Virus record (IMG/VR): IMGVR_UViG_3300024283_000010
Span: 1-64,000 of that record
DNA length: 64,000 nt
Origin: a virus
Taxonomy: Duplodnaviria > Caudoviricetes
Reading direction: 5' to 3' (one strand)
Under the pieces are notes generated by a model that was given only the letters and a program-made list of their open reading frames with translations, did no database searches and was not told the DNA's origin. The position numbers were made by a program, and so were the translations under genes. Of this stretch, positions 3,001 to 29,681 are shown in pieces (within the stretch, counting starts at the first letter, position 1; each line of letters opens with the position of its first letter).

Positions 3001-4115
3001 CTGCATTTTTCAGGGGATGGAAATTCGCCTACGGTAACGAAGGTAATTATCAACGCGCCCTTGAAGAACTTAAAAACAGTCCTAATTATTTGATTGCTCA
3101 ACGTTCGGGATTAAAAAATAATCCTGATAGGGTAAATACAGAAGAATATCAAAAGAGCCAACATTTTTTAGGCAAACTTGGTATGGCAGGGGAGAAAGGA
3201 TTTAATGCCATTAAAGTATTAAGACAAGATTTATTTGACTATCATTTTAACAAACTTTCACCCGCTGAAAGAGATGACCCAAATGTAGCTAAAAGTGTAG
3301 CACATTTAGTTAACCTTGCTACAGGCGCTACTAATGTAAAAATACCTGCTTGGGTGAATGAAGCATCATTTGCAGGAGGTATGGAGGCGGCAAGATGGGA
3401 AAAGCTCACTGCAAGCCCAGTAAAGGCTACCCAAACTACATTAAACACTATATTTAATCCATCAAAAGCAACTGCATCTGATAGGGTATTTGCTAAAATA
3501 TGGGCGCGTAGGGTGGGCGAGCAACTAGCCACTTATAGTGCTTTATTATTGGCTAATTCAGCTATTCAAAATAACGTTAATCCAAAAAACCCTGTTAACT
3601 ATACTAACCCCGACAAGCCGGATTTCATGAAGTTTAAGTTTGGTGATGTGACGATTGACCCTACGTCCGGCATGCGAGGTGCGGCTATGTTTATGAGAAC
3701 AATTGGTAAGATACCGTTTGAAAGTAAACAAGAACTACACGGAGATAAGAGAATAGCGGTTGCAGGAAAGCAAATAGCGGGTTATGCAAGGGGAAAATTA
3801 GCACCGCTATATGGGACAGCCGCAGACTTTTTTTCAGGAACAGATTTTAGTGGTAATGTTTTGCCATATAGCAATGATAAACCAAGTGGACACGCTCACA
3901 AGCTAACGTGGGGAGAATATGCTTGGAATAAAGCACCATTGCCCGTAGCAGAAGCAGCAAGTGTGGCTTATAAATCAGCAATAGAACACGGAGCGCATAA
4001 AATGACATTGGATAACGTAATTAATGGTATTATGTCGGGCGCTATTTCAGGCACTACAGGGTTCAGGGTAGGGGAATATGATGCTAACGCACCGGAGAAT
4101 AAAAAGAAACGGTAA
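3..4115 (+). CDS. Large acidic/helical virion-associated protein (DNA ejection/internal core type), 5'-truncated
   Basis: Frame is open from position 3 ([12 protein letters not shown]...), so it begins upstream of the window; >1349 aa, Ala/Glu/Lys-rich, precedes fibre-like genes; internal 59-aa duplication. Confidence 0.55.
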
Positions 4116-11076: not shown

Positions 11077-11703
11077 ATGGGAAAAAGACTAAGAGTTATT
11101 TATACGACGGGGCAATTGATAGGAGATTGCATATTTTTGAGCGACGAGCCATATTTGATTACCAACGGCGTCAAAAGAAGAATGGCTAAATTTAAGTGTA
11201 TTTGCGGTAAGGAGTTCATAGATAGAATTGACAAAGTTCAAGGAGGAGGCAGTAAAGGTTGCGGGTGTAGAAAAGGCAATCCAACTCATGGATATACTAC
11301 AGGTCAAAAAACAGATGAATATAATATTTGGTGTAAAATAAAAGATCGTTGCAGGAATAAAAATGATCTTAGATACGGAGGAAGAGGAATTATAATTTGT
11401 GAAAGGTGGCTTGGTTCATTTGAAAACTTTTTATCAGACATGGGTAAAAGACCAACTCCTAAACATTCTATTGATCGTATTGACAATGATGGCAATTATG
11501 AACCGTCAAATTGCAAATGGGCAACAAAAACAGAACAGGCAAGAAACAGGCGATCTAATGTATTTATAACTTATAATAATGAAACACATTGTCTCAATGA
11601 ATGGGCTGAAAAATTATCTATGCCACCAATGACATTATGGTCACGGCTTTATAGATATGGCTGGTCAATTGAAAAAGCAATTACATTTCCAATTAGAAAA
11701 TAA
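11077..11703 (+). CDS. HNH homing endonuclease
   Basis: CxC..SxGCGC N-terminus and 'HSIDRIDNDGNYEPSNCKWAT..Q..N' HNH motif. Confidence 0.85.
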   Translation: MGKRLRVIYTTGQLIGDCIFLSDEPYLITNGVKRRMAKFKCICGKEFIDRIDKVQGGGSKGCGCRKGNPTHGYTTGQKTDEYNIWCKIKDRCRNKNDLRYGGRGIIICERWLGSFENFLSDMGKRPTPKHSIDRIDNDGNYEPSNCKWATKTEQARNRRSNVFITYNNETHCLNEWAEKLSMPPMTLWSRLYRYGWSIEKAITFPIRK

Positions 11704-13430: not shown

Positions 13431-13466
13431 TTTTTATTTATATTAGCTGTGCAAAACAGCCTCAGT

Positions 13467-15851
13467 ATGAGAAAATTAGTCCTAATTGCTTTAACTGTTC
13501 TTTTCCCATTATTTTGTCTATCGCAAGCTATACCCGGCTGTGGGACTTTTACATCGAGTGGCCCGATAACGGCAACTAGTAATTCAACTATTTCGGGTAA
13601 ATCAATTGACCTTGCAAATGCAGCGACAATAGGCATAAACATTCCAAATGGGGTACATGATGTGCATATCACTAAGTGTATTATTAAAAATGGCACGACA
13701 GCGAATGGACTGATTAAAATCGGGTCGGGCTGCTACAACATAACGATTGATACGTGTTTTTTAGAGGCTGGTTGGAGAGGTATTAATGCGGTAGGTGCAA
13801 CTAATCAAATCCATATTTGGTATAATTATTTTCATAACATTATTGACCCGAATGTGACAGCAACTTCAAGTGATGGTGGGGGGAGTTCGGTTCAACTTAA
13901 TAATTGCAATGGTGTAGGCATTCAAATACTAGATAACAAATCCTATCACGATGTCTCTAGCAGTGGTATAGGAGACCAATATTCAATCTTTCAATGCAAT
14001 GGTACACCAGCATCTCCAATACGTTGTTGTCGCAACCAAGCGCTTAATGGAAGCACTAATCCGCCGGGGACGGGGTATGTAGCCGCAGTGGCCGGAGATG
14101 TCGGCGGGTCTTGGCAACGGTGCGATAGCAATGTATTCGTCAATACCGGTAGTGTGCTATGCCAAGTACAGGGCGGTACAAACATAGAGATGTCATACAA
14201 TACAGGCTATCTTGCTCAAACATCATACACATCAGTAGGTATGGCCTATGGTAATTATTCAGGTGCTCCATCTAATAATGTTACTATGGCGTTTAATAAC
14301 GTTAGGTGTATACAAGCATCGGGCGGTGTTTTTAATTACTGGTTTGATTCTTCGAATGTGACAGCTCCGGCAGGATGGGCAACCAATACTACTTCAACAT
14401 CCCTGAACGCTTCAATACTTCCAAATCCATTATGGCCTCCATGTAACCCTGTAGTGTTACCACCTAATATCAGCTACACTGGTTCACCATTTACGTTCGT
14501 AGTTAGTACGGCTATTTCAAGCCTTGTACCGTCAAATTCGGGAGGAAATGTAGTTTCATACTCCGTTAGTCCATCACTTCCTTCGGGCTTAGGAATATCG
14601 AGCGTGAATGGTATCGTGAGCGGCGTTCCATCGGTTGCAACTGCGCAGGCTACGTACACGGTAAAAGCGGTTAATTCTGCGGGACAAAGCACTTTCCCAT
14701 TAGTGATAACGGTTAATCCTGCACTGGTCAATAAACCAGTTATAAGTTATTCACCAAATAGCGTAGTCGGAACTATTAATAGTGCTATACCGACACTAAA
14801 TGCTTCCAATACGGGGTCGCCAGTTGTTATGTGGGGTATCAGTCCTTCGTTACCCGCAAACTTAACATTCAATTCAGGCACAATTTCAGGCGTTCCTACG
14901 GCAGCGCAGGGCGCGACTACATATACGGTCAGCGCAACAAATTCGGGAGGCGTAGGGACAGCGAATGTGACAATACAAGTTAATCCGATAAAGCCAAGTA
15001 TTTCCTACAGTGGCAGTCCTTATTTATTCACTCAAAATTCAGCGATAGTACCCCTTAATCCAACAAATACGGGTGGGCAAATTACATCGTTTTCAGTTAG
15101 CCCTGCTTTACCAAGCGGCTTATCCCTAAATACTATATCGGGTCAAATAAGTGGCACACCTACGGCTACACAATCAGCGGCTACATATAATATAACAGCC
15201 GTAAATGCGGGTGGAAATTCTATCTTCCCGATTTCGATCCAAATTCAAGCACCTGCTGTTGCAGCACCGATAATTTCCTACTCTCCAAGTTCACAGACAG
15301 GGATTATAAACGTGGCTATAAACAATATGAACCCTATTAACAGCGGCGGCGCTGCAACGGGGTTTACTATTAGCCCATCTTTACCCACAGGACTTAATTT
15401 TAACACGTCTAATGGCGTTATTAGTGGAACAGCGACAGTTATATCAGGTTCGACAAGTTATACGATTGTAGGGTCTAATACTGGCGGCAGTTCAACGACC
15501 CATGTCACAATTCAAATTAATCCGATACCTGCACCAAACATAAGCTATACAGTATCATCGGTTTTGTATTTAACCAATCAGGCTATTACCCCCTTGTCGC
15601 CCTCAAATACGGGCGGAGCAATTAGCGGATATACGACAGATGTATCATTACCTGCCGGACTTACGATAGACGCTACCTCAGGCATAATTTCAGGTGTACC
15701 AACGCAGGTTACAGCACCCATAACGGTTACAATAAAGGCCACAAATAGCACAGGATTTTCAACATTCCCAATTCAGTTTGCCGTTAACCCTCAACCTGTT
15801 ACGCACTGGTACTTGATAAATCAAAGCTTTTTTGGCCCTGTAATATATTAA
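13467..15851 (+). CDS. Secreted protein: parallel beta-helix domain plus five putative Ig (He_PIG-like) repeats
   Basis: Signal peptide MRKLVLIALTVLFPLFCLS-Q (ATG 13467); Asn/Cys-rich beta-helix N-half; five ~85-aa repeats 'P.ISY...SP.LP.GL......G.ISG.P......Y.V.A.N..G'. Confidence 0.8.
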   Translation: MRKLVLIALTVLFPLFCLSQAIPGCGTFTSSGPITATSNSTISGKSIDLANAATIGINIPNGVHDVHITKCIIKNGTTANGLIKIGSGCYNITIDTCFLEAGWRGINAVGATNQIHIWYNYFHNIIDPNVTATSSDGGGSSVQLNNCNGVGIQILDNKSYHDVSSSGIGDQYSIFQCNGTPASPIRCCRNQALNGSTNPPGTGYVAAVAGDVGGSWQRCDSNVFVNTGSVLCQVQGGTNIEMSYNTGYLAQTSYTSVGMAYGNYSGAPSNNVTMAFNNVRCIQASGGVFNYWFDSSNVTAPAGWATNTTSTSLNASILPNPLWPPCNPVVLPPNISYTGSPFTFVVSTAISSLVPSNSGGNVVSYSVSPSLPSGLGISSVNGIVSGVPSVATAQATYTVKAVNSAGQSTFPLVITVNPALVNKPVISYSPNSVVGTINSAIPTLNASNTGSPVVMWGISPSLPANLTFNSGTISGVPTAAQGATTYTVSATNSGGVGTANVTIQVNPIKPSISYSGSPYLFTQNSAIVPLNPTNTGGQITSFSVSPALPSGLSLNTISGQISGTPTATQSAATYNITAVNAGGNSIFPISIQIQAPAVAAPIISYSPSSQTGIINVAINNMNPINSGGAATGFTISPSLPTGLNFNTSNGVISGTATVISGSTSYTIVGSNTGGSSTTHVTIQINPIPAPNISYTVSSVLYLTNQAITPLSPSNTGGAISGYTTDVSLPAGLTIDATSGIISGVPTQVTAPITVTIKATNSTGFSTFPIQFAVNPQPVTHWYLINQSFFGPVIY

Positions 15852-15874
15852 AAAAAGCCCCAATTAAGGGGCTT
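15850..15874 (-). terminator. Intrinsic terminator closing the leftward RAMP/array operon (probably bidirectional)
   Basis: AAGCCCC-AATTAA-GGGGCTT hairpin; A-run at 15850-15856 gives the U-tract on the minus strand. Confidence 0.75.
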
Positions 15875-15880
15875 AATTCT

Positions 15881-16238
15881 TTACCACACCAAGCCCAACC
15901 TGACCTAAAATTATATATGCCAAACCGGGTAACATATTACCTTACCGGAAGCCACCATAATTTACCTATGACCATATCAGACCCCACCACATCGTACCAA
16001 ACCACTGACCTCATCCCGCTTCATCAAATATTATCTAACCGCATCTTAATTCACCAAACCTCTGACCAAATCCTGCCTCAACGCGCCTAACCATATCTGA
16101 CCGCATTATACCTAACCGCTGACCCTGCCACTCCATATACGAACATACCCAACCATAAACGACCAGTCCTTGCCACCGACCCTATCGCATCAGACCATTC
16201 CAATACTTACCCCATCAGAACTTGCCCTACCTCTGACC
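15881..16238 (-). ncRNA. Non-coding GGY-NN pentamer array in 57-nt units (VIPR-type guide RNA array candidate)
   Basis: Minus strand parses as GGTC(A/G)GN head + 10 pentamers; heads at 16238, 16181, 16124, 16067, 16010 (exact 57-nt spacing), then 15973 and 15905; no ORF of 60 aa or more in the track; starts right after a stop codon and ends at a terminator. Confidence 0.8.
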
Positions 16239-16682
16239 CTACTTTCTACTTGATGAAAAGACTTGTTGCAAGTTACTTAATCTGGCAATCAAATCATTAT
16301 TTTTGCCTACTTGTTCAGTAGGAATAGCATTGGTTCTGACATTCAGCATAATATTACGTGCTGTTTTCAATTCCTTTTTAATAGCATCAATAGCTGAATT
16401 AAACCCAAATTGCACTTGATCTTTTGGTGGCAATAAAGTATAACCATCGCCACGAATATTCCTTAGATAGTACATTTCTTTTTCAAGTAATTCATTTCGT
16501 AAATTATCAACCATCTGCATGTACTTGAATTGAATGTTTTGATAGTCTTCGACGTATTTCGCTGTGTTATTATAATTACGTATCTGAGGGAATTTTATAT
16601 TAAAAATATCTCTCAGATAGTCGTGAGTGATGAGCTGTCCCGGCTCAAATTCACTCACTATTTTTGCAATAATTTCATCCAT
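16239..16682 (-). CDS. wHTH-like accessory protein between the RAMP-like gene and the array
   Basis: 147 aa; 'YLRNIRGDGYTL' wing-like motif followed by long helices; 2 nt from the upstream gene. Confidence 0.55.
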   Translation of the reverse strand: MDEIIAKIVSEFEPGQLITHDYLRDIFNIKFPQIRNYNNTAKYVEDYQNIQFKYMQMVDNLRNELLEKEMYYLRNIRGDGYTLLPPKDQVQFGFNSAIDAIKKELKTARNIMLNVRTNAIPTEQVGKNNDLIARLSNLQQVFSSSRK

Positions 16683-16684
16683 GA

Positions 16685-17251
16685 TTAAACTTTTTCTACC
16701 GTGAATCTACCATAACGTGGCCTGTAGTCGCAGACACCAATATACATTCCGGCATTCTTTACAATTGTGTCTACTTCGGTTTCATTCAGTTTGGCTTCAT
16801 CCAAAAATATAGTGCATGTAAATTCCCATGAATGAAAAATAGGACGACACCTCATCGTTTTTGCCTGACCAACTTTTACAGTTCTCATATCGCAATAACC
16901 GGGAACATCGAATAACTTAGGTGGTGGTACTTTTGAATGCTTAAACTCAAATATGGCATCGTCCGGTACGATTGCAGCTTGTTTCCATAATACCCCTTGT
17001 TTAAACTGTTTGGCAGACGCTAAAAACGTAGCATCAAGAACACTGGATGGCATAATGTATATCCCATCTTCATAATAACAAGACGCCTCAAATTCACAAC
17101 GGGCGATAGCCTCTTGATCTTCATCTGTTTTCTGTCTCTTTTTAGTGAGTTCCTTTAATCTTTTAGTAAAAGGATGTAACGGATTAGCGGTTTTGTCGCT
17201 GTGCATCAATAATGGGGCTGTGCCCTTGATACGATAACTTAAAGTTTTCAT
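16685..17251 (-). CDS. Stand-alone RAMP/Cas7-like protein (Vipr-like candidate)
   Basis: 188 aa; N-terminal strand 'YRIKGTAPLLMH', central 'DMRTVKV....MRCRPIF..W', C-terminal Gly-rich loop 'AGMYIGVCDYRPRYGRF'; linked to the GGY-NN array. Confidence 0.7.
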   Translation of the reverse strand: MKTLSYRIKGTAPLLMHSDKTANPLHPFTKRLKELTKKRQKTDEDQEAIARCEFEASCYYEDGIYIMPSSVLDATFLASAKQFKQGVLWKQAAIVPDDAIFEFKHSKVPPPKLFDVPGYCDMRTVKVGQAKTMRCRPIFHSWEFTCTIFLDEAKLNETEVDTIVKNAGMYIGVCDYRPRYGRFTVEKV

Positions 17252-17261
17252 TTTTTGAAAA

Positions 17262-17371
17262 TAAAAAACCCGTATCAGCCGTTCGGGTCTTTCGCTACCT
17301 TACTAAGCCAACACGGGCTAAATCTTTTTAATCTGTTTGTTATCTCTTGGCGAAAGTCGGATAACACAATG
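17262..17371 (-). promoter_or_regulatory. Structured 5' leader with terminator-like hairpin (attenuator/riboregulator candidate)
   Basis: TGTTATC/GATAACA stem; loop CTTTCGC complementary to downstream GCGAAAG; ACCCG..CGGGT-TTTTTT hairpin just before the ATG. Confidence 0.5.
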
Positions 17372-17403
17372 CAAATATAATTATTGTATATTTAATATCA
17401 AAA
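17372..17403 (-). promoter_or_regulatory. Bacteroidota sigmaA-type promoter
   Basis: TTTG (17400-17403) - 20 nt - TATATTTG (17372-17379), matching the -33/-7 consensus TTTG / TAnnTTTG. Confidence 0.7.
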
Positions 17404-17515
17404 TACTAACTTTAAATAGCCCCCAACAGCAAGCGCGATCTGCGCAGCTTAAAATAGGTTAGATAGGTAGAAAAGTCTTGCGCGATGTGAGACTTTTTTT
17501 ATTATATTTGATTAT

Positions 17516-18040
17516 ATGAAAACAGTTAAATTCAGACCATTAAGAGTAATTAAAAAGTCAGGCAAAATAACGGTTGCTTCATATATGCAATGGAGAAGTA
17601 TCAAGACTTCTGATTATAATAATTTCAATCTAATTATAGACGAAAGCTACAAGATGCTAAATGATGAAGATTTTGTCTATAACCACGAGGGGGAACAATT
17701 ATTCTTTTATGATTTTAAACCTTGTGATATTATTGTGAATCCCGATATTCCAAAATCAGACGGATTTCAACCAAGTTCAGAAAACACGTATGAATATCTA
17801 AATTTCAGAAATGAAAATCCATACATCTTACTTGATAAAGGCGATTACAAAACTTATTGGTGCAGAGGATTAGATTGTGACGGAGTGCCAACTTTAAGCC
17901 ATTATACCGCAGATTATATTGTAAGTGACCATACACGTGATTTTACTTTATTTGAACCGCTTACAGTTGGAATGGTTAAAATGTGGTTTGGATGGTTCTT
18001 ATGGCAATTAGAAAATTCTAGATTACAAATACTAAATTAG
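17516..18040 (+). CDS. Hypothetical protein
   Basis: 174-aa ORF with TATATTTG at 17503-17510 just upstream. Confidence 0.6.
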   Translation: MKTVKFRPLRVIKKSGKITVASYMQWRSIKTSDYNNFNLIIDESYKMLNDEDFVYNHEGEQLFFYDFKPCDIIVNPDIPKSDGFQPSSENTYEYLNFRNENPYILLDKGDYKTYWCRGLDCDGVPTLSHYTADYIVSDHTRDFTLFEPLTVGMVKMWFGWFLWQLENSRLQILN

Positions 18041-19129: not shown

Positions 19130-19669
19130 ATGAACCTACCTGACAAATACGCATGGCTCAATGACGAGCCGGGGCCAAAGATGCTGAAAGAGGCACTGGC
19201 ACTGTACGGCACACTGGAAACACCGGGTGCCGAAAATAATCCCGTTATAATGGCATGGGCAAAAGAGGTTGGTGTTAACGGGTGGTATCCCGGTGACGCT
19301 ACTCCGTGGTGCGGACTATTTCAGGGCGTCATAGCCAAACGTGCAGGATGGGATATAAGTAAAGACTTGTTAGCCGCCGCATCATGGGCATTATGGGGTA
19401 CACGCGTTGAACCCGGAAATGAAATGCTCGGTGATGTATTGGTATTCTCACGAACCGGCGGGCATCACGTAGCTGAATATATTGGGGAGAGCAAGGATAA
19501 TTTCCTTATCTATGGCGGCAATCAAGGTGATAAAGTTGGCTTTGAATGGATTGGCAAAAACAGGTGCATAGCAAGGCGTAGAGCACCGTGGAGAGTGTCA
19601 CAGCCTGCCAGTGTACGCAAGATATATTTAGATGATAACGGGGCTGTATTGGCTCATAATGAGGCTTAA
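19130..19669 (+). CDS. Putative endolysin, TIGR02594-type (NlpC/P60/CHAP-like)
   Basis: 'TPWCGLF', 'AASWALWG', 'GDVLVFSRTGGHHVA', 'IYGGNQGDKV' motifs with catalytic Cys/His. Confidence 0.8.
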   Translation: MNLPDKYAWLNDEPGPKMLKEALALYGTLETPGAENNPVIMAWAKEVGVNGWYPGDATPWCGLFQGVIAKRAGWDISKDLLAAASWALWGTRVEPGNEMLGDVLVFSRTGGHHVAEYIGESKDNFLIYGGNQGDKVGFEWIGKNRCIARRRAPWRVSQPASVRKIYLDDNGAVLAHNEA

Positions 19670-23136: not shown

Positions 23137-23245
23137 GTTAGGGTAAACTTTATATAAACTTTCGTTAAAATAATTCTTGCTTCTTAGCCCCGGCTAATGC
23201 CGACAACTCCACAAGCTCACCGGCACGTTTCATGCCTGATTTCTT
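23123..23245 (-). ncRNA. Putative TnpB omegaRNA 3' part (scaffold overlapping the end of tnpB, plus guide)
   Basis: Hairpins GGCATG-AAA-CGTGCC and CGGC-ATTA-GCCG, GAAGCAAGAA, degenerate terminal hairpin then AGTTTAC; flank CCTAACATGGAAAAGAAACA would be the guide. Confidence 0.45.
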
Positions 23246-24304
23246 TATATTTATCGCTGCGTTGTGATCTCTTGATAAAGACAGCCCACATGCGCATTTA
23301 TAATGTCTTTCTGATAATGGCATATCCTTTATGCCACCGCAATTAGAACAAGTCTTAGTACTTGCTTCAAATATGCCTATCTGAATAATATTCTTTCCTC
23401 TCCAATCAGCTTTATATTTAAGCATATTTACGAATGAACTCCAACTTGCTGAACTGATAGCCAATGCCAACTTATGGTTTTTAACCATTCCGCTAATGTT
23501 CAAATCTTCTAGGCAGATAGTATCATAATGATTGGTTATCTCATGCGATACAGTATGTAAGAAATGATAGCGGCTATTATTTATTTTTTCATACAATTTG
23601 GATAACTTAAGAATTGCGTTTTTTCTATTTTTACTGCCTTTTTTCTTTCTGCTCAATCTCCGATGAAGTACTTTTAATCGCTGTAACGATTGCTGAAGAT
23701 GTTTAGGATTTTCTATTTCTATACCATCGGAAAGTACGGCAAACGTTTTTAACCCTAGGTCTAAACCAATTGTAGTATCAATATTAACTGGCTTTTTTGC
23801 CACCGGTAATGACGAATCGTCAACTATAAGCGAAGCAAAGTATTTATTAGTTTTGGATTTACTAACTACAACATGTCTAATGTCACCTGCTAAATTTCTG
23901 TGATTTACTATCTTTATTCCCTCTCTGAATTTCTGTATAAAAAGAGTATTACCTTTTATGTTGCAGTTGTATCTTAAGCTAAATGATTGATTGGAATTCT
24001 TGTTTTTAAATTTTGGGAACTTGCTTCTCCTGGCAAAAAAATTATTAAAGGCCAAATCGAGTGTTGACATAGACGCAGCCAGTGCATCATAACTTACCTC
24101 TTTTAACCAATCGTGATCCTTTCTTAACTCTGTCATCTGTTTTTGCAGATCGTAGTTTGATAAATTAACGCGGTGGGTTTGGTATGCATATGATTTGGTT
24201 TCCAAAGCAAGATTATAGATAAACCTACAGCAATTCATATGTTTATCCATTAACGCCGTTTGGGCATCCGTAGGGTATAATCTGAATTTAAAAACTTTAA
24301 TCAT
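23165..24304 (-). CDS. tnpB: RNA-guided endonuclease TnpB (IS200/IS605 family), no tnpA nearby
   Basis: 'FKFRLYPT', RuvC I 'IGLDLG', RuvC II 'CLEDL', Zn ribbon 'TCSNCG..CACG', RuvC III 'RDHNAA'; catalytic D-E-D intact. Confidence 0.92.
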   Translation of the reverse strand: MIKVFKFRLYPTDAQTALMDKHMNCCRFIYNLALETKSYAYQTHRVNLSNYDLQKQMTELRKDHDWLKEVSYDALAASMSTLDLAFNNFFARRSKFPKFKNKNSNQSFSLRYNCNIKGNTLFIQKFREGIKIVNHRNLAGDIRHVVVSKSKTNKYFASLIVDDSSLPVAKKPVNIDTTIGLDLGLKTFAVLSDGIEIENPKHLQQSLQRLKVLHRRLSRKKKGSKNRKNAILKLSKLYEKINNSRYHFLHTVSHEITNHYDTICLEDLNISGMVKNHKLALAISSASWSSFVNMLKYKADWRGKNIIQIGIFEASTKTCSNCGGIKDMPLSERHYKCACGLSLSRDHNAAINIKKSGMKRAGELVELSALAGAKKQELF

Positions 24305-28634: not shown

Positions 28635-29513
28635 CTACACATCAATGCCTGTAATGTCTTTAAATATATCCTTGTCGAAGTTTGGAAGTTTCTGGAATGA
28701 CTCTTTAGCTGCATCGCTCCAATTATTCCAAGCATTTTGAAACGCTTCTTTATATGGTAAATTTTTTATATAACCACCAGTCGTAACGTAGTATGGGTAC
28801 ATTACCTTTTCTTCATCTGACATTTTATAATCAGGAATAAAAATAGTAGTATCTATTTGTGATAAATACTTATAAGCATCTGAATTAATAAAATCTTCAT
28901 AAGTCCAATCAGAAGGCTTATTAAATAGCATGTAATTTGGTGTAACCAAATTATTAAAAGCCCCGGCGTTGTCGTTCCCGGCGTTGCTGTACCCGGCGTT
29001 TCTGTTCCCGGCGTTGTAGTTCCCGGCGTTGTAGTTCCCGGCGTTGCTGTACCCGGCGTTTCTGTTCCCGGCGTTGTCGTTCCCGGCGTTGCTGTACCCG
29101 GCGTTGTCGTTCCCGGCGTTGCTGTACCCGGCGTTTCTGTTCCCGGCGTTGTCGTTCCCGGCGTTGTAGTTCCCGGCGTTTCGAATGCCTGAATTACCTT
29201 TTCCTAAATTGCATAATTCAAGAACTTCAAGCCATGATAATTCTCTTATTAATTCTATGGCATTGGTGCAAGATTTATTATCTTGCGTTACTGGCGTCCC
29301 GTGATCTATAATTTCAAACACCCGATTTGAGGTATTAAAATCATAATAACTGAAACAGTCAACGCATTCTACACAGTAATGAAATCCTGAATTGCAAGGC
29401 GAAACAACGCCAGTGTGTTTAAATATTTTATTAAGTTCATATTGGTACGAACGACATTGCATGTTAGAATCGGTTACCTTGTAACCTTTAATTTGTACTT
29501 TTTCTTTTTTCAT
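28635..29513 (-). CDS. Phage pentapeptide-repeat protein
   Basis: N-terminal 'GYK..D.NMQCR.YQYE..K......PC..GFHYC' domain, 15 x NAGxx repeats, C-terminal 'LPNFD..IF..ITGI'; ATG 29513 preferred. Confidence 0.75.
   Translation of the reverse strand: MKKEKVQIKGYKVTDSNMQCRSYQYELNKIFKHTGVVSPCNSGFHYCVECVDCFSYYDFNTSNRVFEIIDHGTPVTQDNKSCTNAIELIRELSWLEVLELCNLGKGNSGIRNAGNYNAGNDNAGNRNAGYSNAGNDNAGYSNAGNDNAGNRNAGYSNAGNYNAGNYNAGNRNAGYSNAGNDNAGAFNNLVTPNYMLFNKPSDWTYEDFINSDAYKYLSQIDTTIFIPDYKMSDEEKVMYPYYVTTGGYIKNLPYKEAFQNAWNNWSDAAKESFQKLPNFDKDIFKDITGIDV
28956..29180 (-). repeat. 15 x 15-nt coding tandem repeat (AAC GCC GGG NNN NNN)
   Basis: Identical 9-nt core in every unit; encodes NAGNY/NAGND/NAGNR/NAGYS/NAGAF. 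Confidence 0.95.
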
Positions 29514-29681
29514 GTTTTTGAAAGCTTTTAAATAAAATTGATATGCAATGTTACGAACTATATTTATTATATGCAAATTTATTTTGAGAAATATTTTCAC
29601 TTTTATTTCCTAATATCAAAACTTATCCCCAACTTTGTTCCCACACCCCGAAAGATTGGAGGGGGGGGGGAAAGAAAAAAT

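Follow-up and report, generated by a model that had tools for sequence, protein, structure and literature searches.

Systems termed Viral Interference Programmable Repeat (VIPR) were described in 2026 (bioRxiv 10.64898/2026.04.26.720920, 10.64898/2026.04.26.720927 and 2026.10.15.759431), with tested examples from Escherichia and Pseudomonas phages. In the solved system of Escherichia phage SUSP1 there is one Vipr protomer per guide pentamer: the GGY is flipped out and gripped by the G-loop, the thumb and a β-sheet His, the NN pair with two target bases and a thumb-bundle pocket accepts the skipped base, while the filament wraps both DNA strands and thereby blocks transcription (10.64898/2026.04.26.720927). 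Here we analyzed the first 64 kb (the window) of the 75,909-bp IMG/VR virus record IMGVR_UViG_3300024283_000010, rated 100% complete by CheckV, and conclude with high confidence that a compact minus-strand unit (17401-15848), comprising a promoter, a leader, a 188-aa open reading frame (ORF), a 147-aa ORF, a non-coding tract and a terminator, is a VIPR system of this complete 75.9-kb phage. Every VIPR feature that can be checked computationally is present, with the exception of the SUSP1-style tail. A sequence-only reading of the same DNA had described a complete leftward transcription unit, all parts of which are indeed found on the minus strand, and had described VIPR as a pairing of a RAMP protein with GGY/NN RNAs that read gapped double-stranded DNA (dsDNA) targets, which the published work bears out. 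It had also put the locus forward as a candidate RNA-guided system of VIPR type; because the VIPR family is already published, the locus is a further member and not a novel system. Its core consists of the following elements:

16685..17251, minus strand: vipr, 188 aa, a predicted stand-alone RAMP protein
16239..16682, minus strand: vap1-like accessory gene, 147 aa, starting 3 nt past the vipr stop
15881-16238, minus strand: putative vrRNA array, non-coding and G/T-rich, its first base directly after the TAG stop of the 147-aa ORF

By sequence homology the 188-aa protein is Vipr, a homologue of the solved SUSP1 protein: a phmmer search of all PDB chains returned a single strong match, chain 36pp_D ('SUSP1 Vipr protein'; alignment of residues 1-186 with 1-188, E 6.7e-35), with the runner-up at E about 1. 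Identity is 37% to the Vipr proteins of Felixounaviruses and 48.7% to that of Pseudomonas phage Medea1, and the nearest named homologues are proteins of Mucilaginibacter sabulilitoris (63%) and of a Bacteroidales metagenome-assembled genome (MAG; 53%), closer ones being metagenomic. The protein belongs to PHROG 4652 (E 9e-55), a family present in 135 phage records; Pfam, NCBIfam and PADLOC hold no family for Vipr or Vap. The predicted fold is that of a Csm3/Cas7-like RAMP protein: when the AlphaFold 2 (AF2) model (predicted local distance difference test, pLDDT, 93.6) was compared by Foldseek with a PDB copy older than the VIPR entries, Csm3, the Cas7-family subunit of type III-A complexes, supplied the best matches (prob 1.0, TM about 0.5, 12-14% identity). 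The earlier RAMP/Cas7-like call is therefore borne out by the SUSP1 homology as well as by structure prediction for 16685-17251, where Csm3 came out on top, and the two motifs on which that call was built, IKGTAPLLMH and IGVCDYRPRYGRF, are present and align to the H17-bearing strand and the G-loop of SUSP1 Vipr, respectively.

In SUSP1 Vipr the guide is contacted by H17 and D177 (G1), R138 and W178 (G2) and R179 (Y3), and K33 contacts the target backbone (10.64898/2026.04.26.720927). In the alignment to 36pp_D these residues correspond to:

SUSP1 H17 (G1 contact): H17 here
SUSP1 D177 (G1 contact): D175 here
SUSP1 R138 (G2 contact): R136 here
SUSP1 W178 (G2 contact): Y176 here, aromatic retained
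SUSP1 R179 (Y3 contact): R177 here
SUSP1 K33 (target backbone): K33 here

Among 48 homologues R136 never varies, and conservation of H17, K33 and R177 is at least 90%. The SUSP1 steric residues E71/M72 and C173 are not kept (S70/V71 and I171 here), and these changes, along with Y176 for W178, may be linked to tolerance of A at G2. With the Cas7/Csm3 backbone of type III CRISPR-Cas, Vipr shares the RRM/RAMP fold with thumb and G-loop and the principle that one protomer binds at each fixed interval of the RNA, where bases are flipped periodically. By contrast, identity is about 12%, CRISPR repeats and spacers, cas1/cas2/cas10 and a second RRM are all absent, and VIPR advances by 5 nt, of which 2 bases are read, on a dsDNA target in which one base is skipped. 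A check of the ORFs and repeats between 15840 and 17420, and of PADLOC, revealed no cas genes, CRISPR repeat-spacer array, adaptation genes or multi-subunit effector within or beside the operon, as the sequence-only reading had stated for cas1/cas2 and repeat-spacer arrays.

The tract behind the 147-aa ORF is strongly periodic, with an autocorrelation of 0.37 at lags 5, 10, 15, 20 and 25 versus about 0.26 at other lags, and the 360-nt segment over the array ranks first for period-5 signal in the 75.9-kb genome (z 7.6). The runner-up, at 28960-29180, was rejected as a second array, its signal being that of a coding 15-nt repeat: a 321-aa minus-strand ORF (28635-29600) contains there a perfect-looking tandem repeat of about 15 copies encoding N-A-G-N-x pentapeptides. 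A single pentamer register across the array was likewise rejected (no phase is enriched), because the register moves by +2 at each copy of a recurrent heptamer, GGTCRKN. The heptamers start at 16238, 16181, 16124, 16067, 16010 and 15973 (spacings 57, 57, 57, 57 and 37 nt) and define a unit grammar of one heptamer plus n GGYNN-like pentamers, n being 10 in U1-U4, all four of which are exactly 57 nt long, 6 in U5 and about 12 in U6. In the 58 pentamers of these six units G1 is conserved at 79%, G2 at 55% (A 28%) and Y3 at 92%, with positions 4 and 5 near background. What had been described earlier as a pentamer array beginning at the stop codon is thus correct as to its period of 5, its non-coding nature and its start at the TAG, but it does not run in one register and its GGY consensus is loose. 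A strict GGY caller proved too strict for the array, detecting the last 5 pentamers only, and Tandem Repeats Finder reported almost nothing. The units, with the NN dinucleotides of U1-U4, are:

16182..16238, minus strand: U1, GGTCAGA + 10 pentamers; NN = AG AA CT GG AA TT AT CT GC AG
16125..16181, minus strand: U2, GGTCGGT + 10 pentamers; NN = AA CT CG AT TG AT CG AT GT AG
16068..16124, minus strand: U3, GGTCAGC + 10 pentamers; NN = TA AT GC CA AT TA GC GA AG TT
16011..16067, minus strand: U4, GGTCAGA + 10 pentamers; NN = TT GA AA GC TA AA TT GA GG GA
15974..16010, minus strand: U5, GGTCAGT + 6 pentamers, 37 nt
15906..15973, minus strand: U6, GGTCATA + about 12 pentamers, the 3' end decaying to AT-rich sequence
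15881..15905, minus strand: U7, 5 perfect GGYNN (GGTCA GGTTG GGCTT GGTGT GGTAA), directly 5' of the terminator

The strict caller scores 5/5 on U7; in U4 the GGY is the most degenerate among the units, yet Y3 is kept in 10/10 pentamers. The grammar is not private to this phage: heptamer + 5n is common to six loci (the window and the related loci L004, L005, L102, L099 and L100, all five on Bacteroidota-type contigs), in which the spacing from one heptamer to the next is 2 mod 5 in 21 of 22 cases. Unit lengths in L004 are 67, 62, 67, 67 and 62 nt, G2 is 83% in this locus with its 81%-identical Vipr versus 55% in the window, and the pentamers of L099 and L100 (61-62% Vipr identity) are nearly all GGTNN. 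Arrays adjoin vipr in every relative locus read, with or without vap, in line with the earlier expectation that homologues should have adjacent GGY-NN tracts. The array RNA shows no excess of structure over shuffled sequences (z -0.18), a repeat search found no repeated 3' tail in the array, the sole hairpin being the terminator behind the last unit, and Rfam gave no match in 15700-17600.

In relatives with 53-62% Vipr identity, the arrays begin or end with a tRNA-like minihelix in which a 6-7-bp acceptor-like stem is stacked on a T-arm with the loop GGTTCGATTCC (L099:869-1500, L100:1202-1500 and 2077-2338, L101:2529-2768). ARAGORN called no tRNA at these sites of L099-L101, and the minihelices could signal processing of the array ends by RNase P/Z. 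No such minihelix tails occur in the window.

On homology the 147-aa gene is vap1-like, related to the vap1-position genes of type II loci: its product belongs to PHROG 5926 (E 1.4e-19) and matches in BLASTP the gene 3' of vipr in Medea1 (E 2e-18) and in Alf5, a Felixounavirus (E 6e-9). The AF2 model (pLDDT 88.6) has an N-terminal domain of helix-strand-helix-helix-β-hairpin order followed by an antiparallel helical hairpin (residues 84-147). The sole Foldseek matches of the N-terminal domain are weak (winged-helix proteins OmpR, GntR, MarR and ScpB, E >= 0.3), and a VIA-wide fold search was uninformative, its rows being filled by the C-terminal hairpin. A winged helix-turn-helix (wHTH) N-terminal domain is plausible from the model and agrees with the wHTH-type description of type II Vap proteins (10.64898/2026.04.26.720920). 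Of the 'wHTH partner' proposed by the sequence-only reading, the partner is upheld as a homologue of vap1-position genes, whereas the wHTH part goes back to fold matches of this weak kind. The closest Vipr relatives, L004 (81% identity) and L005 and L102 (78%), have no vap, and there the array lies directly at the vipr stop (L004:3083-3480, L005:758-1130, L102:2083-2330).

The locus probably belongs with the type II-like systems, as judged by Vipr similarity and vap homology; the best named Vipr relatives are type II-like (Felixounavirus 37%, Pseudomonas 48-49%), a placement by similarity and not by a tree of the published seven types. As in the type II VIPR of SUSP1 and Felixounaviruses (PDB 36pp/36pk), the G-loop, thumb Arg and β-sheet His are conserved, vipr is followed by a vap1-like gene and then by downstream GGYNN guides of about 10-12 repeats, the system is phage-encoded, without cas genes and without self-targets, and the predicted targets lie in recombination or replication genes of mobile elements with the skipped base at the codon wobble position. 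Unlike these systems, the locus has neither a ~40-nt pseudoknot tail nor an inter-guide leader, the guides abutting and being delimited by GGTCRKN (+2); moreover, G2 is often A, a terminator-like hairpin takes the place of vrRNA upstream of vipr, and the probable host is from the Bacteroidota instead of the Enterobacteria. SUSP1 guides come with a leader and a 3' tail (10.64898/2026.04.26.720920), and in Felixounavirus Alf5 each clean GGYNN run has a conserved leader 5' and a hairpin tail 3'. We note that Escherichia phage Alf5 (L003:1605-2000 and 3032-3427) carries a textbook type II VIPR locus that is annotated merely as hypothetical proteins. Its vipr-vap pair is flanked by two vrRNAs on either side, every one of which combines the leader AAAGGTCTTTAA..GGGTCTTTTAA with 11-16 GGYNN units and a hairpin tail.

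The 'staggered' vrRNA arrays of the discovery paper, compared here by the legend of its fig. S18, have directly successive guides in which the end of one is the start of the next, as is seen here, but that legend gives overlaps of 1 nt, with no mention of a heptamer or a +2 shift (10.64898/2026.04.26.720920). The layout of our array may therefore be the published 'staggered' type or an undescribed variant, the legend text not establishing identity with the former. Medea1, with the P. fulva-clade VIPR, is the closest cultured-phage homologue and its cassette is likewise placed among tail genes, but its single short array ends in a hairpin tail and lacks heptamer punctuation.

Because the contact residues are conserved, the SUSP1 mode of action very likely applies here. 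By analogy with SUSP1, we infer transcription, processing, ribonucleoprotein formation and silencing at this locus as follows. A single leftward transcript would carry vipr, the vap1-like gene and the guide array; Vipr protomers would bind one per pentamer, each hiding G-G/A-Y and presenting the next two bases; the filament would read dsDNA with one target base skipped per two read and block transcription of the target, and the Vap protein would probably assist on DNA. In place of structured tails, the GGTCRKN step with its +2 register would separate the guides, either ending one filament or guide and starting the next or marking an RNase cut. Such a boundary or cleavage role in lieu of the tail is suggested because a 7-nt step cannot be spanned by a filament with 5 nt per protomer. 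A more specific proposal, to which we give only tentative credence, is that GGTCRKN is an undescribed delimiter splitting one tail-less transcript into filaments of 10-12 protomers, with or without cleavage, and that the system polices insertion sequences and a small rolling-circle integrative element, not phage satellites.

Candidate targets were sought by the published rule, in which the NN of successive pentamers are joined by one wildcard base, on both strands; exact-pattern scans used 20 informative bases per guide, U5 (12 informative bases) and U7 being too short. None of the guides matches its own phage genome above the shuffled-guide null, so that self-targeting or autoregulation was rejected, and an absence of self-targeting is also reported for published VIPR (10.64898/2026.04.26.720920). 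A random 20-base guide is expected to give about 1.1 matches in 596 Gb (about 1.2e12 positions over 4^20). The exact matches were:

U1: IMG/VR 0; genome_contigs 0
U2: IMG/VR 3 loci; genome_contigs 76 loci
U3: IMG/VR 0; genome_contigs 0; metagenome_contigs 1
U4: IMG/VR 0; genome_contigs 7 loci
U6 (first 10 NN): IMG/VR 0

All 79 of the exact 20/20 U2 sites fall in one motif and one frame, every skipped base being a wobble position: the site codons read L-T-M/I-R-M-Q/H-M/I-R-R/S-F/L within the motif ERQN-LTMRMQMRRF-TRLTNAFSKK. The gene concerned, that of an IS1-family transposase, matches Pfam DDE_Tnp_IS1 (34-38 bits vs a cutoff of 24.1) and has IS1 as its best NCBIfam match (73-100 bits, under the 100-bit cut-off of that model). 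Between the divergent target copies L007 and L009, differences within the site are confined to skipped positions, and the reversed U2 pattern, used as a control, gave 0 matches in genome_contigs. By Markov's inequality the probability of at least 76 matches is at most about 1.1/76 = 0.014 per guide, which is a bound and not a proper test. The matches come mostly from soil Acidobacteriota and Proteobacteria, with low-GC Bacteroidota represented by Mucilaginibacter sp. (L052, 40% GC), Chitinophagales (L061, L070), Chitinophagaceae (L017, L057) and Flavipsychrobacter (L079).

For U4, five of the seven exact loci are background, namely unrelated proteins sharing the peptide pattern, while the remaining two (L091 of Mucilaginibacter gilvus and L090 of a Sphingobacteriales MAG) are homologous and lie in frame in a 289-aa REP_ORF2-G2P gene. 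In M. gilvus this gene comes after a tyrosine integrase gene, an ORF of 300 aa and an excisionase-like HTH_17 gene (L091:565-4301), and the exact one-base-skip site is at L091 4161-4189. The gene layout is suggestive of a small integrative element with its rolling-circle Rep gene as the candidate U4 target. The closest named Vipr homologue (63% identity) comes from Mucilaginibacter as well. The single U3 match in metagenomes (L103:818-846, 37% GC contig) falls, in frame, within a polysaccharide-locus gene for a Wzz-like chain-length determinant; it would be of interest if the host carried such a gene, but was rejected as a target, being a singleton at chance expectation. U1 at up to 2 mismatches was rejected as chance as well, with 6 unrelated matches vs 2 in the control (301 genomes, Mucilaginibacter family). 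On this evidence the guides are most likely aimed at host mobile elements, U2 at the IS1-family transposase motif and U4 at the integrative-element Rep.

Several observations weigh against a fully working VIPR system aimed at mobile elements. Most U2 matches reside in high-GC Acidobacteriota and Proteobacteria, impossible hosts for a phage of 39% GC, so that the match may reflect only a very conserved motif; five of the U4 matches are unrelated background; and only two of the five searchable guides (U1-U4, U6) have the exact matches considered here as targets. Convergence of several guides on one element, as in SUSP1, was not seen in the fetched target loci, the guides of L004 and L005 included. 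A conserved 3' tail of the kind capping SUSP1 vrRNAs is missing, and the closest relatives L004, L005 and L102 lack vap, whereas SUSP1 reportedly requires Vap1 in natural infection. Finally, perturbation of GGY abolishes SUSP1 silencing (10.64898/2026.04.26.720920), and with G2 at 55% some units here may be weak or dead. Taken further, this last point leads to a decaying or inactive locus in which the genes are intact, the array has drifted (GAT, GTT and TAT for GGY) and loads Vipr poorly, and the U2 and U4 matches are relics or chance. The lower G2 relative to L004 (83%) and the fading of U6 into AT-rich sequence would fit such decay. However, a drifting array should lose register through indels, whereas here the heptamers have kept their grammar and their exact spacing of 57 nt and Y3 stands at 92%; U4, the most degenerate unit, retains a 20/20 in-frame match; frequent internal degeneracy, with YNNNG and NNNNG variants, is reported in the discovery paper (10.64898/2026.04.26.720920); and Y in place of W at the G2-stacking residue may relax G2 specificity. 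We therefore consider decay improbable.

Still less probable is a working VIPR directed at host chromosomal genes for host takeover. The sole exact U3 match, in the Wzz-like gene on a 37% GC contig, could be read in this way, and mobile-element matches are lacking for three of the five guides searched, but the U3 hit is what chance predicts, the two better-supported guides match a transposase and an integrative-element Rep gene, and published VIPR targets are satellites and prophages. That the RAMP protein stands outside VIPR altogether, with a role in RNA processing or elsewhere and a G-rich tract that adjoins it by coincidence or as a mere 3' untranslated region, is scarcely credible: the want of a family for either protein in Pfam, NCBIfam and PADLOC would allow it, but the full-length match to the solved Vipr, the conserved GGY-contact residues and the arrays of the same grammar adjoining every homologue read, vap present or not, speak against it.

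As a VIPR locus, this operon extends the reach of the family, in that the same machinery and the same GGY-gripping residues are found in a phage of soil Bacteroidota. Its compact array without a SUSP1-type tail permits a test of what sets guide ends and filament length, and short tail-less guides would suit engineering. The codons matched by U2 are those of the most conserved motif in a transposase family, which fits the published idea that wobble skipping confers resistance to escape, and, if true, this target would add insertion sequences to a VIPR range that so far covers satellites and prophages. Relative to published VIPR, the core idea of which is already in print, the additions are the tail-less heptamer grammar and the transposase target.

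The remaining elements of the transcription unit, predicted from sequence, are:

17372..17401, minus strand: promoter, TTG-N19-TATATTTG, Bacteroidota sigma-A type (consensus TTG-N19-TAnnTTTG)
17252..17371, minus strand: 5' leader of 120 nt; closing stem of 14 bp (17319-17267), then a U-run (17266-17261)
15848..15874, minus strand: intrinsic terminator, AAGCCCC-TTAATT-GGGGCTT hairpin (15874-15855) and T-run

The promoter has its TTG at 17401 and TATATTTG ending at 17372; genome-wide, the Bacteroidota motif was counted 12 times vs 5.2 +/- 2.4 in shuffles, and the same region can also be read as a sigma-70-like TTGATA-16-TATATT (sigma-70 scan score 10/12). The leader U-run ends 10 nt upstream of the vipr ATG. 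Of the structured leader claimed by the sequence-only reading the 14-bp stem is there, but its fold (RNAfold, -28 kcal/mol) is not by itself statistically distinct (z only -1.67); hairpins at the equivalent position upstream of vipr in L004, L005 and L006 have z values of -1.0, -3.2 and -3.9. Hairpin and U-run may constitute an attenuator or a transcript-stabilising hairpin.

The operon runs convergently towards a fibre-like gene of 800 aa with He_PIG repeats (13449-15851) and is divergent from small plus-strand genes, beyond which lies a TIGR02594 lysin-like gene (19130-19669). This position agrees with the earlier view of a cassette inserted between fibre and lysis genes; on the contig of one relative the vipr cassette likewise has a He_PIG fibre gene on one side and a GH25 lysozyme gene on the other. 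The phage probably infects Sphingobacteriales or Chitinophagales. Elsewhere in the window it encodes a 379-aa TnpB-like protein (23165-24304, minus strand; PHROG 506 'transposase', E 4e-111), a second, unrelated gene of RNA-guided-nuclease type, and within the tail/fibre gene block an HNH homing-endonuclease-like gene (11077-11703, plus strand; PHROG 374, E 5e-55).

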